IMG/VR virus record: IMGVR_UViG_3300035208_004206
Coordinates: 8,727-72,726 of that record
DNA from: a virus
Lineage: Duplodnaviria; Caudoviricetes
Length of the DNA: 64,000 nt
Direction: 5' to 3' (one strand)
The position numbers were made by a program, and so were the translations under genes. How positions within the stretch are numbered: the stretch's first letter is position 1; every line of letters starts with the position of its first letter. Shown piece after piece: positions 21,884 to 39,375 of this stretch. Under the pieces are notes generated by a model, which was not told where the DNA came from, did no database searches, and saw nothing but the letters and a program-made list of their open reading frames with translations.

Positions 21884-21979
21884 AGGTAGCAGAAAATCTA
21901 ACACCTTTAACCTACTTTTGTCATTTTAACTGATGAAGTTAAAGTAGGAAATTTATTGTAAAGCTCGGTTCTTTATTGT

Positions 21980-22006
21980 GCGAAAACCTCCTTACCATTG
22001 TAAAAT
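21980..22006 (+). promoter_or_regulatory. Putative middle-class promoter GCG-N18-TAAAAT
   Basis: Upstream of the operon containing dCMP deaminase. Confidence 0.6.
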
Positions 22007-31794: not shown

Positions 31795-31821
31795 GCGGGT
31801 TTGGCAACCGACTCGTAAAAT
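31795..31821 (+). promoter_or_regulatory. Putative middle-class promoter GCG-N18-TAAAAT
   Basis: Directly upstream of the four-way-junction element. Confidence 0.55.
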
Positions 31822-31911
31822 AATATGTTGTGGGCTCATATGTGAGAGGTTGCGAACGGCCCGGAGGGGTATCTGCTGTGTGACGACATGAACACAGCCC
31901 CACAACATATT
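31822..31911 (+). ncRNA. Candidate structured RNA: perfect four-way junction in the tmk leader
   Basis: P1 31822-34/31899-911 (13 bp), P2 31835-38/31843-46, P3 31847-50/31871-74 with inner GCCC/GGGT, P4 31875-81/31892-98; no unpaired junction bases. Confidence 0.6.
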
Positions 31912-31933
31912 GTGTATTTTATGGAGGGTGTAG

Positions 31934-32647: not shown

Positions 32648-32808
32648 TGAAATGGATATATCAACTTTGTTGTGGGTGGTGGTCAGGACATCATTGGATC
32701 CGTGTCTCTGAAGATTTCTTCAAACAGGAAACGGTTCTTCAGTGTACACTGTGTGACAAGATAGAAAAAGTCCCAGGTATAATTGCGGGCGATCCAAACG
32801 CCGAGTAG
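32644..32808 (+). CDS. Small Cys/His hypothetical protein (54 aa, not in the ORF track)
   Basis: ATGA overlap; LCCGWWSGHHW...CTLC. Confidence 0.55.
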   Translation: MMKWIYQLCCGWWSGHHWIRVSEDFFKQETVLQCTLCDKIEKVPGIIAGDPNAE

Positions 32809-35992: not shown

Positions 35993-36448
35993 ATGAGAAT
36001 CACTTTTAAGTATGTTCCTGTTCACGCTGGTCCAAGTAGAGTAGAAGGATTCACCTGGACAGAAGAGGGAATTGTTTCACTACACGATCAAATCATAAAG
36101 ATGATACACCAGGGAAATCTTATTGTCACCCCAGACAATGATGATAGAGATCCAATAAAATATACAGAACTTGGAAGGGTTATGAAAATAAACCTTCTTG
36201 ATAAAACATTAACAATTGAACCTAACAAAGATTTTCCAACCGACGCAACACCAGAGACATATATTCTTGGTGCTAGGGTATACCTTGATGAACCGCGTGA
36301 CAGCGGGCCGATTGGAGCAGATGTTCACCTGCTCAATTTTATTATAAGACCTATAGAATCACAAGATCATTTTTATTTGGGATTGGGTATGCAAAAAATG
36401 TTACCACCCGAAGGAACAATATTTAATTTGAAAGGGGAGAAGCAATGA
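35993..36448 (+). CDS. Hypothetical protein related to 26436-27299
   Basis: GGAGG RBS; shared G-aromatic-x-W and Y(I/V)LG segments. Confidence 0.7.
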   Translation: MRITFKYVPVHAGPSRVEGFTWTEEGIVSLHDQIIKMIHQGNLIVTPDNDDRDPIKYTELGRVMKINLLDKTLTIEPNKDFPTDATPETYILGARVYLDEPRDSGPIGADVHLLNFIIRPIESQDHFYLGLGMQKMLPPEGTIFNLKGEKQ

Positions 36449-37026
36449 AAAAGATTTTGATTGCATTGATGTTCCTGCTCTTCGTCTTTTCACCGATCAG
36501 TCTTCCTGCTGAAGGGTGTTCGAAGCACTGTTGCAAGTATGAAGAGCTTGCAAAGGAACGGATCTATGGGATCCAATATGGTGAGGCTGCAAGCTTGATG
36601 ACTCGAGCAAAAGATGCTGGTGATGAGGCGGCGAAGGATGGATCTCGGTGTGCGTATGCTCTCTATCTCATTGCTGGAAATGCTATTGCTGCCGTCGCAG
36701 AAGGAAGTTCAATCATGCTCGAGATGGCATCGCAACGGTATGGTGATGCATATTGGGAAGTACTGCGACACAAGAATCATGTATCACAAGCGAAGATCGA
36801 TAAAATCGGTGAGCTCAAGTGGAATTATGCGAAGAAGTTTGCAGACCAGCTTTATACAGATGGGGATGATCTCAAGCGAGCGGGTGAGGTTTATTGCTGG
36901 CTCAGATGTCAACAAGGTTTTGTTTCGGCCGAGTGGTATGAGAAGGTGTCTGCTCAGATAGATCAGAGGATCAAAGAGACCGAATCTTTTAGTGGGAAGT
37001 GTACCCTTCCTGGTGGTCGGATATGA
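36445..37026 (+). CDS. Exported hypothetical protein
   Basis: Signal peptide MKKILIALMFLLFVFSPISLPA; helical; several Cys. Confidence 0.7.
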   Translation: MKKILIALMFLLFVFSPISLPAEGCSKHCCKYEELAKERIYGIQYGEAASLMTRAKDAGDEAAKDGSRCAYALYLIAGNAIAAVAEGSSIMLEMASQRYGDAYWEVLRHKNHVSQAKIDKIGELKWNYAKKFADQLYTDGDDLKRAGEVYCWLRCQQGFVSAEWYEKVSAQIDQRIKETESFSGKCTLPGGRI

Positions 37027-37220
37027 TCAATAAAGAAGTTAAGGATATGTCTACCGCAGAACTTCTTGTTTATCGAACACATGGGAAACAAGAAGCTTTT
37101 GTAATTGATGTTCATCAAGATCGGTTTCCTCCCGAACAAGAAGCATGGTTGACACACGGTAAGAAGTGGATCAAAGAAATCGAAGCTGAGCTTGATAAAC
37201 GAGGAGTCTCTTACAAGTAG
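37023..37220 (+). CDS. Small hypothetical protein
   Basis: ATGA-coupled; 65 aa. Confidence 0.6.
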   Translation: MINKEVKDMSTAELLVYRTHGKQEAFVIDVHQDRFPPEQEAWLTHGKKWIKEIEAELDKRGVSYK

Positions 37221-37264: not shown

Positions 37265-37921
37265 ATGAGAGCATCAACCCTCATGACCCTTCTCTTCGCG
37301 GTGACAACCATTGTTGTTTTTGCGAAAATTGATTTGAAGAGCGACACTGAACCTCCGGGTATTCGAGTAGGACAAGAAGTGTGTGAAGCGTTCCCCTGGG
37401 ATCCTAGGTTCCTCCCTGTCAGTCAAAATGTTGTAAGGGTACACCAACCACCTATCAAACTGCACGAGGACGTCCAGGTTCCCCGAGCAGATGTTCCCAG
37501 CGGTAGAGGAATGCCGTTCTATGGTGAAGCAAGAGACACAGCCGATACCATCAGAACATATTTCCTTCAAACCGAGTATGCCCCGGTCGCGGACTACATT
37601 GTTGCAATATCAATACAGGAAACTGGGTGGTGGAGATCAAAGTTCCATCAAGAGAGGCAGAACTACTTCAGCACGAAGATGAAACCCGACGGGGTGAACT
37701 GTATAAATGGAGAACGAAACTGTTTGACGACACATGCAAATGTTTTTGAATCGTGCGCATATGTTCTTAAGGGCGTGTTCAGAAAACGCCACTATGCAAA
37801 AGACCCCGAAGGATTTCTCAATGACCTTGGAAGAAAAGGATATGCAAGAGATGTGACCCACGCTGATAATGTTCGAGACATTGCAAAGCGAGTTACCGCG
37901 ACCTTCAGAAAAAGACCGTAA
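37265..37921 (+). CDS. GH73/glucosaminidase-like cell-wall hydrolase with N-terminal membrane segment
   Basis: AISIQETGW, NYF, KGYARD; TAAATA at 37225. Confidence 0.75.
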   Translation: MRASTLMTLLFAVTTIVVFAKIDLKSDTEPPGIRVGQEVCEAFPWDPRFLPVSQNVVRVHQPPIKLHEDVQVPRADVPSGRGMPFYGEARDTADTIRTYFLQTEYAPVADYIVAISIQETGWWRSKFHQERQNYFSTKMKPDGVNCINGERNCLTTHANVFESCAYVLKGVFRKRHYAKDPEGFLNDLGRKGYARDVTHADNVRDIAKRVTATFRKRP

Positions 37922-37924
37922 AAT
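37898..37924 (+). promoter_or_regulatory. Putative middle-class promoter GCG-N18-TAAAAT
   Basis: The predicted +1 (~37931) coincides with the first base of the structured element. Confidence 0.6.
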
Positions 37925-37930
37925 ATTTTG

Positions 37931-38167
37931 AGTGTTTGGTGGGGTGTCGTTTAACGACGCCGTGATCATACACTTTTGCAGCAAGCGGTCAGCCTGATCA
38001 GCTGACGCACGTTTGTTGCATGTTTGGGTGGTGGCGGGAGCATGCACACCGCAGTCGATGGTGCAGACTGAGGATGGCGTTAAAGCCTGTGAGGACCCTC
38101 AGACATCCTGCGCGAACATCGATGCTGTTTACCGACGGCAGTCAGACATTGAGCTGACCACCACCCA
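37931..38167 (+). ncRNA. Candidate ~240-nt multi-domain non-coding RNA
   Basis: Hairpin 37931-37974; hairpin 37977-38020; domain closed by TGGGTGGTGG 38025-34 / CCACCACCCA 38158-67 with at least 4 internal stems; several G-U pairs. Confidence 0.65.
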
Positions 38168-38225
38168 TTCATTTTATCCACAAAATCTAACAGTAAATAC
38201 TCACAACGAGTTGTGAGGTGTTCTC

Positions 38226-38815
38226 ATGCGGTTTGACCGGATGTTTTTCGAAGCAAGGATCGACCCAGAAGAAAAGAAAAGATTGCTGGATGAGATTGTG
38301 TTCCTTGATAAAACACAGACCCTTCTGTTTTCGAAAATATCTGCAACAAAGCAAAACGTGAATTCAAAGGTTTGATCTATCCAGACGGCAAGGTTGCAGT
38401 GTGGAATAAATCTGGGTGGTCAGGCGAGTTACATTGGGAGCATGTTGCTGTTTCTGAACGTATTCATGCTGCAGGGGTCGAGAAAGTAAAACCGCTTGCT
38501 GCGATCTATATCAATGTATCAGATTATGAAGATCCTTTTGTGACATTTTCATCTTCAAACAATTCTTATTTTTATCCGAAGTATCTTAGACACCATGGCG
38601 ATAACAATGTATCAAGAAAACAAAGTGATATTATGTTCAACGCTCTCCCAACTGTTGATAGGATCATATATGACAATAGAGAAGTTTCACGTAATGAGTG
38701 GGAAGATGAAAATGTAAGTAGCAATCAATTAGATATACCATTTGAAAATAACAAGACAAAGATATACAGTCGAACACCGTCTGGACCACAAACAGCAAAT
38801 ATGGAGCAAGGGTGA
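38226..38815 (+). pseudogene. MxFxR-leader family member interrupted by a -1 frameshift (or an assembly error)
   Basis: Leader MRFDRMFFE is in one frame; the family core KGLIYPDGKVAVW...EH is in the -1 frame; frames join at the A4 run 38310-38313. Confidence 0.7.
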
Positions 38816-39327: not shown

Positions 39328-39375
39328 TATTCGAAAGTTCAGAACAGATCAAATAATCTAACCTTCTGTTTCCTC

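Follow-up and report, generated by a model that had tools for sequence, protein, structure and literature searches.

What does the gap of about 300 bases (37922-38225) between two late genes of this phage, a GH73-like gene and an internal-protein-like gene, encode? A structured RNA element sits in it, and this element could be a separate RNA, an untranslated part of one of the neighboring mRNAs, a small protein gene, or a signal that works at the DNA level. An earlier note on the same DNA had proposed a non-coding RNA of about 240 nt with several domains and its own promoter. Here, we analyze the fold of the gap, its conservation, its probable boundaries, and its relation to known RNAs.

The window, that is, the whole analyzed stretch of 64,000 nucleotides, belongs to a 72.7-kb IMG/VR virus record with an estimated completeness of 32%, and nearly all genes of the record lie on the plus strand. 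Compared with any cultured T4-type phage, such as Melnitz and S-SCSM1, the identity of the family-B DNA polymerase (PolB) is only about 27%, and the nearest uncultured protein outside its own lineage shows 38% identity. Thus, the source is a deep-branching T4-like phage. The possibility that the flanking genes continue further under an alternative genetic code was considered and rejected: TGA is the stop codon in 30 of 69 long ORFs, and the code is standard. The N-terminus of the GH73-like hydrolase (37265-37330) is hydrophobic (MRASTLMTLLFAVTTIVVFAK...), which suggests a signal-anchor; this would fit a membrane-tethered or SAR-type endolysin.

Fold of the gap and its conservation in a close relative

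When region 37931-38167 is folded as a plus-strand RNA, the minimum free energy (MFE) structure coincides with the centroid and has an energy of -106.4 kcal/mol (z-score -4.81), nine G-U pairs being included; none of 200 dinucleotide shuffles folds as well. The minus strand yields a weaker structure (-91.2 kcal/mol, z-score -3.79). For the entire gap 37922-38225 the z-score is -6.6, while the 25 other gaps of the record range from -1.9 to +1.9 (26 gaps folded, dinucleotide shuffles). Hence, such structure is not general to the spacers of this genome, and the folding energy, for which the earlier note had suggested a comparison with dinucleotide shuffles, turned out to be far better than theirs both for the folded region and for the gap.

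MFE folding recovered all three domains, hairpins A and B and domain C, in the places where they had been proposed (Table 1). The predicted transcript would begin with hairpin A at its 5' terminus. The interior of hairpin B contains a 3-nt asymmetric loop, the inner stem GUCAGC/GCUGAC, and the loop CUGAUCA with the palindrome UGAUCA. Domain C is closed by the helix TGGGTGGTGG/CCACCACCCA (38025-34/38158-67), which has 10 bp if the pair 38034/38158 is counted (core 38025-33/38159-67), and each of its junctions has zero or one linker base. The sequence TGGGTGGTGG recurs at 37624 and, outside the window, at about window coordinate -2809.

Table 1. Coordinates of the gap RNA, its parts, and the neighboring features (positions in the window unless stated otherwise).
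Feature	Position	Strand	Basis and details
GH73-like peptidoglycan hydrolase, upstream gene	37265-37921	+	Pfam Glucosaminidase, E 8e-10
Promoter-like motif GCG-N18-(G)TAAAAT	37898-37924	+	GCG 37898-37900, -10 TAAAAT 37919-37924
Plus-strand GCG-N18-GTAAAATAW sites (four)	21980-22006, 31795-31821, 37898-37924, ~790 nt into record	+	motif enrichment
Hairpin A	37931-37974	+	MFE folds; ~17 bp with small mismatches, then UUUU
Hairpin B	37977-38020	+	MFE and consensus fold; 10-bp outer stem with two G-U pairs
Domain C, five-way junction, 143 nt	38025-38167	+	MFE structure = centroid
Arm C1	38034-38052	+	4 bp, 11-nt loop
Long arm C2	38054-38123	+	70 nt, four stacked helices, apical loop GUUAAA, single-stranded GAGGAC
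Arm C3	38124-38139	+	small hairpin
Arm C4	38141-38158	+	small hairpin, 8-nt loop ACAUUGAG
AU-rich tail UUCAUUUUAUCC	38168-38179	+	sequence; identical in L002
Late-type promoter core TAAATAC	38194-38200	+	TAAATAY enrichment
5' UTR hairpin CTCACAAC/GTTGTGAG	38200-38217	+	inverted repeat; overlaps Shine-Dalgarno GAGGTG
Internal-protein-like paralogue, downstream gene	38226-38815	+	ATG at 38226

Searches with the GH73-like protein (HMMER and word-based) identified one close relative with 85-86% amino acid identity, encoded on the 3.4-kb Logan contig L002. This contig is the only relative found, so all comparative support rests on two sequences. The C-terminus of PolB in L002 has 94.5% amino acid identity to that in the window, and the block comprising the GH73-like gene, the gap, the internal-protein-like paralogue, and a 171-aa gene is syntenic. 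Folded independently, the L002 RNA adopts the same three-domain architecture (-106.5 kcal/mol, z-score -4.55).

The two RNAs differ by 17 substitutions and two single-base indels. Their identity is 92.8% overall, with 84% in hairpin A, 100% (44/44) in hairpin B, and 93.7% in domain C; at third codon positions of the flanking genes it is 59-74%. Eight of the differences fall into hairpin A. Here, two pairs are replaced on both sides by compensatory changes (G-C to A-U and U-G to A-U), and one G-U pair becomes G-C in L002. At the top, a C-G pair is gained through an insertion combined with a substitution, and a single pair is lost (U-A to C.A). In domain C, all four substitutions at paired positions keep the pairing (G-U to A-U, U-A to U-G, U-G to C-G, and G-C to G-U), and the remaining five substitutions and the 1-nt deletion are all located in loops. 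In the consensus structure of the window and L002, 168 of 168 cells are paired; seven pairs vary, all of them being standard pairs, with two double-sided and five one-sided consistent changes.

Preservation of pairs was assessed on the fold of the window sequence alone, which avoids circularity, by comparing the L002 substitutions with 2000 random placements of substitutions of the same types. On the plus strand, the sense of all transcripts in this region, the substitutions disrupt one pair, where 6.35-6.4 would be expected (P 0.0005-0.001); on the minus strand, they disrupt four pairs, where 5.16 would be expected (P 0.32). The reciprocal test, with the L002 fold and the window changes, gave two broken pairs against 5.1 on the plus strand (P 0.036) and five against 7.0 on the minus strand (P 0.18). 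Since the pairs are preserved on the plus strand but not on the minus strand, selection acts on pairing in the plus-strand RNA rather than on a double-stranded cruciform. The built-in pair-shuffle control on the alignment, where 129 of 500 shuffles scored as high, is uninformative because two sequences do not allow it to discriminate. The comparative support for the plus-strand structure is thus real but modest, being drawn from two sequences. Within these limits, the RNA-level selection that the earlier note had read from the G-U pairs is supported, and the covariation it had asked for in relatives is observed as structure-preserving and compensatory changes on the plus strand only. We consider it very probable that a structured RNA in this gap is under selection.

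Details of the proposed pairing did not all survive the comparison. The local helices CAGTC/GACTG and AGGATG/CATCCT, which had been assigned to domain C, are used neither in the MFE structure nor in the consensus fold and are weakened by the changes in L002. The pairing 38054-60/38117-23 does form and is kept in L002 (G-U to A-U, U-A to U-G); however, it is not an alternative pairing, as had been thought, but the base of arm C2.

The domains appear to be constrained in different ways. Judged by the distribution of changes, hairpin A behaves like a helix where pairing alone matters, and hairpin B and domain C behave as if selection also acted on their sequence, including that of the loops. Conservation by itself does not prove constraint here. 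A patch of the GH73-like gene (37385-37560) has only three differences from L002 in 176 nt, all synonymous, while elsewhere the gene is about 80-85% identical. This patch is unstructured (z-score -1.6) and is probably a patch of recent recombination; that it is conserved as strongly points to mosaic recombination at this locus. Three small genes (151, 193, and 73 aa; window 35993-37220) are absent from L002 (1083-1144), where a 100-aa gene after polB adjoins the GH73-like gene directly, a mosaic indel between near relatives. The frame of the downstream internal-protein-like gene is split in the window by a missing A in the A-run 38309-38313 (GATAAAAC). The frame is intact in L002, in a landfill contig (an extra A after 38309), and in the 191-aa protein P0095 from a 58-kb contig; thus, the frameshift in the window is an assembly error or a strain variant rather than a feature of the lineage.

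Could the gap instead encode a small protein, or could the structure have arisen by chance in a non-functional spacer? Two ORFs of 67 aa (38013-38216) and 45 aa (38020-38157) are indeed open in the window. They have no Pfam or PHROG match and no Shine-Dalgarno sequence, and two L002 indels, at positions 38105 and 38180, affect their frames; the 1-nt deletion at 38105 alone puts both ORFs into other frames with unrelated C-termini. As both overlapping ORFs are frameshifted, the region is not coding, and the 67-aa ORF, whose conservation as a protein the earlier note had named as the outcome that would speak against an RNA, is not conserved. Chance structure is excluded by the z-scores of -4.8 to -6.6 and by the pair-preservation test. 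Either of these explanations is hardly credible.

Predicted ends of the transcript and a second structured element

The promoter-like motif GCG-N18-(G)TAAAAT precedes the structure, and its -10 element overlaps the TAA stop codon (37919-37921) of the GH73-like gene. The position of this element places the predicted transcription start at about 37931 (37930-37932), the first paired base. The motif GCG-N18-TAAAAT has four matches in the window against 0.42 expected, three of which are on the plus strand (at 21980, 31795, and 37898); outside the window, at about nucleotide 790 of the record, there is a fourth plus-strand site. The related pattern GTAAAATAW has five matches in the window against 0.9 expected, with plus-strand sites at 22000, 31815, and 37918. 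In all four plus-strand sites, three in the window and one outside, GCG is exactly 18 nt upstream of TAAAAT. Two of these sites are located 15-25 nt upstream of a Shine-Dalgarno sequence with an ATG, and the other two directly precede multi-way junction structures. The motif is kept in L002, and the last 50 or so nucleotides of the GH73 coding sequence contain long identical runs.

Two other promoter classes were observed in this phage. Sigma-70-like early promoters of the form AATGTACwT...TGTATAATAT are found upstream of 4079, 8100, and 22955 and, outside the window, at about -4150; the late core TAAATAY, located mostly upstream of genes, occurs 19 times where 9.25 occurrences would be expected. 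Because GCG-N18-TAAAAT differs from both, it may represent a middle promoter class. As a motif class it is verified, given its enrichment, its recurrence at plausible promoter positions, and its retention in L002. It is somewhat more probable, on these sequence grounds, that the RNA has its own promoter than that it does not.

The downstream boundary is marked by elements that lie outside the RNA (38194-38225). After the closing helix comes AUUCAUUUUAUCC; a further 17 nt downstream, the late promoter core is reached, and behind it are the small 5' UTR hairpin and the downstream gene. Three copies of the motif AWAATCTAAC are present in the window (21893-21902, 38182-38191, and 39353-39362; 0.31 expected), always on the plus strand and always in intergenic regions; two of the three copies are situated shortly upstream of a late TAAATA core.

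As to the 3' end, the 10-bp GC-rich closing helix is followed by AUUCAUUUUAU, its strands are separated by 123 nt, and a simple terminator scan makes no call. The AU-rich tail may be the U-tract of a terminator or a processing site. Processing in the tail is an equally good route to the 3' end, as a helix with strands 123 nt apart is atypical for an intrinsic terminator. The sequence ATTTTA (38171-38176) in the tail is an inverted copy of the -10 element, reading TAAAAT on the minus strand. In the MFE structure of 37915-38225, GUAAAAU is paired with AUUUUAU; in the centroid it is not.

A second structured element was observed at 31815-31925. It is a four-way junction with a 13-bp closing stem (z-score -2.9). 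As in the gap RNA, a GCG-N18 motif (GCG-N18-GTAAAATA) is located upstream and AUUUUAU directly adjoins the 3' side of the closing helix; pairing between GUAAAAU and AUUUUAU is possible in both elements. The sister element has no Rfam match, a search up to E 10 returning only noise, and runs straight into the GGAGGG-ATG of a kinase gene with no other promoter between. It may share the design of the gap RNA.

These observations suggest the following scenario. The polymerase would use the predicted GCG-N18-GTAAAATAT promoter, which lies within the final codons of the GH73-like gene, and would initiate at the first paired base. Either termination or RNase E-type cleavage within the AU-rich tail would then set the 3' end just past the GC-rich closing helix. 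This would yield a stable transcript, about 240-250 nt long and independent of the neighboring mRNAs, with a capping helix at each terminus. It would comprise the 5' hairpin A, the invariant hairpin B, and the five-way junction C, with the secondary structure under selection on the plus strand. It might serve a protein or an RNP as a ligand, as a scaffold, or as a decoy, rather than work as an antisense regulator.

The latter expectation follows from the architecture: nearly all bases are paired, and hairpin B and domain C are kept both in sequence and in pairing, which argues for action through shape rather than by antisense. The number of 10-mers complementary to the phage sequence is about twice the shuffled count, and the best complementarity is 14 nt long (38154-38167 vs. 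32673-32686). The latter site, in the gap upstream of polB, reads UGGGUGGUGGUCAG and is a perfect complement of the RNA segment, with about 0.06 such matches expected by chance. It was not counted as an antisense target; the RNA side sits in the paired closing helix.

Distribution and relation to known RNAs

Pieces identical to the gap sequence are present in independent samples, namely, in a landfill contig (38046-38196) and in wastewater contigs; therefore, the sequence is not an assembly artefact. Among the runs listed as containing the sequence, none is on record as RNA. A contig from a run labelled RNA-Seq cDNA (possibly DNA) covers only 38087-38183, is bounded by Nextera adapters on both sides, and carries no information on strand or ends; it is probably one amplified fragment and was left out of the evidence.

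Beyond L002, the GH73 relatives among 1.84 billion proteins searched with HMMER show at most 53% identity. In four contigs with such distant relatives (46-53% amino acid identity), the next gene adjoins the GH73 gene, so that there is no gap and the RNA is absent. A covariance model of hairpin B and domain C, run against 957 kb including 80 distant T4-like loci, matched only the window and L002. No further relatives were found by peptide-pattern scans of IMG/VR with GH73 and PolB, by exact-pattern scans of IMG/VR and GTDB genomes, or by blastn against INPHARED. A gapped pattern had at least 120 matches in the JGI metagenomes; blastn of the region matched none of the loci among the matches listed, and the five of matching span that were inspected are all unrelated sequence. 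As far as searched, the RNA is lineage-specific, and the lineage is a rare one.

None of the 4227 Rfam 15 models, which include tRNA, tmRNA, RNase P, SRP, 6S, pRNA, GOLLD, ROOL, HEARO, riboswitches, small ribozymes, and group I and II introns, matched the window at the gathering score. With the threshold relaxed to E 10, only noise was obtained for 37700-38400 and for L002 1750-2150 (RydC 15 bits, sR7 10-11.5, MIR6024 16). ARAGORN found nothing in the default, relaxed (-ps, -ps80), and intron (-i) modes, and one spurious match in the metazoan mitochondrial mode; a tmRNA was found neither by ARAGORN -m nor by Rfam, and the window contains no tRNA genes. Thus, the earlier failure to assign the RNA by eye to tRNA, tmRNA, RNase P, SRP, 6S, or a small ribozyme is borne out by Rfam, and for tRNA and tmRNA also by ARAGORN; by these models the gap RNA matches no known RNA family.

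Two local resemblances were considered and rejected. With its five helices, domain C has the topology of a class II tRNA. However, the 8-nt loop of C4 (ACAUUGAG) does not follow the 7-nt T-loop consensus (UUCRANY), the closing stem passes into C1 without a linker, and an NCCA tail is absent; as the arm in the T-arm position is not a canonical T-arm, membership among tRNA-like RNAs fails. The sequence CUGAUCA in the loop of hairpin B is hammerhead-like, with one mismatch to CUGAUGA; its context is wrong, and Rfam is negative.

The closest known kind is represented by the T4 RNAs rnaC (species 1, 139 nt) and rnaD (species 2, 119 nt), two small, stable, structured non-coding RNAs for which no role has been established to date (PMC9697503). 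They are encoded between the lysozyme gene e and the internal protein gene ipI, an arrangement loosely like the order of the GH73-like gene, the RNA, and the internal-protein-like gene observed here, although the gene order relative to transcription is reversed. When folded for comparison, rnaC forms a multi-arm structure with one long arm, as does domain C. In contrast to the gap RNA, rnaC has a canonical T-arm (CCGGGUUCGAAUCCCGG) and belongs to a tRNA cluster, and neither T4 RNA has sequence similarity to the gap RNA. Hence, these are RNAs of the same kind but not relatives.

Other systems share single features with the gap RNA. Type I 3' UTR-derived bacterial sRNAs, such as MicL and DapZ, are transcribed from a promoter inside the upstream coding sequence and are Hfq-dependent antisense regulators with single-stranded seeds and a simple terminator hairpin. 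The predicted promoter of the gap RNA is likewise located in the last codons of the upstream gene, and the RNA begins right after the stop codon; unlike these sRNAs, it is paired almost throughout and ends in a branched domain. The put RNAs of HK022, about 70 nt long, provide processive antitermination in lambdoid phages. Both there and here, two stem-loops 1-2 nt apart are located directly downstream of a promoter (a predicted one in our case) and upstream of a terminator-like structure; however, each hairpin of the gap RNA is 44 nt long, a 143-nt junction comes after the two, and the likeness is anatomical only. Phage-encoded RNAs with multi-helix junctions that act by shape are phi29 pRNA, GOLLD, and ROOL, all of which multimerize via loop-loop contacts. 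By analogy, the palindrome UGAUCA in the invariant loop of hairpin B could in principle form a kissing contact. The gap RNA differs from them in size, architecture, and phage type and has no Rfam match to them; T4-like phages package DNA without RNA.

Competing explanations and significance

A discrete, stable, stand-alone RNA acting through its folded shape is the reading we adopt, tentatively and at slightly less than even confidence; that it would work by binding a protein or as a decoy is doubtful. The proposal of a non-coding RNA with its own promoter is supported in part. Its fold relative to shuffles, the preservation of pairs in L002, the lack of conservation of the ORFs, and the recurrence of the motif class all stand, and support for the claim as a whole is partial.

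A structured 5' leader of the internal-protein-like gene, cis-regulatory or stabilizing, is a rather unlikely explanation, under which transcripts from GCG-N18-TAAAAT would read through and the late promoter at 38194 would give a later leaderless transcript. Its main argument is the sister element, which has the same motif and AUUUUAU tail and abuts the Shine-Dalgarno sequence of the kinase gene, thus favoring a leader role. All genes are co-oriented, the scan called no canonical terminator after domain C, and the 58 nt between the RNA and the ATG (38168-38225) are identical in L002 except for one inserted base. However, in the gap a late promoter with its own 5' UTR hairpin separates the structure from the gene, and hence the gene does not need a leader. 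Nor did Rfam yield a riboswitch, T-box, or leader family, even up to E 10, and there is no convincing terminator/antiterminator switch, as the only alternative pairing (37929-42 with 38158-71) still forms a stem before the U-tract. If the structure belonged to the other neighbor, it would be a 3' UTR element of the late GH73-like mRNA, with hairpin A and UUUU as a terminator and further hairpins that block 3' exonucleases or insulate late units, and no separate functional RNA would exist. We find this improbable. Hairpin A does begin 10 nt past the stop codon and is followed by UUUU, and at 84% identity it changes by compensation, as generic terminator stems do; but its base is AU/GU-rich, the U-tract is just 4 nt long, and the terminator scan makes no call on it. 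A generic barrier also leaves unexplained the invariant 44-nt hairpin B and the junction that is 94% identical including its loops, as well as the presence of 237 nt of structure here against none at the other gene ends of the phage; moreover, a recurrent promoter motif lies just upstream.

The gap could, finally, function as DNA, either as a replication origin like T4 oriF/oriG, at which a non-coding primer RNA is made from a middle promoter, or as a folded single-stranded plus strand. A promoter of a non-late class that lies among late genes and yields a non-coding transcript does resemble T4 ori(34)/oriF, and folding with DNA parameters gives a z-score of -4.14 for the plus strand against -2.52 for the minus strand. 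Still, this is very improbable: the region has 50-52% GC, above its surroundings, with no AT-rich unwinding element, and the self-folded transcript would be a poor R-loop former. The pairs are preserved strand-specifically with many G-U/G-T intermediates, which excludes a double-stranded cruciform.

Returning to a stand-alone RNA, one may picture the gap RNA as the first representative of a new class of structural RNAs in phages, although we hold this broader proposal to be unlikely at present. Such RNAs would be multi-domain, nearly fully paired, and transcribed from a dedicated promoter that is neither early nor late. They would either scaffold an RNP or act as a decoy for a host factor that binds or senses RNA, such as a nuclease or sensor involved in defence. 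At least two cassettes of the type "promoter - perfect multi-way junction - AUUUUAU" would then exist in this deep-branching T4-like lineage.

The value of the gap RNA is limited for now by the phylogenetic sample of two genomes. At the same time, it is compact and clearly bounded, its fold has strand-specific support, and the same genome provides a sister element as well as a candidate class of promoters, so that cloning and probing are possible without culturing the phage. Lytic phages are known to carry a few stable structured RNAs, such as T4 rnaC and rnaD, with roles that are unexplained after fifty years; new architectures provide independent routes to this question.
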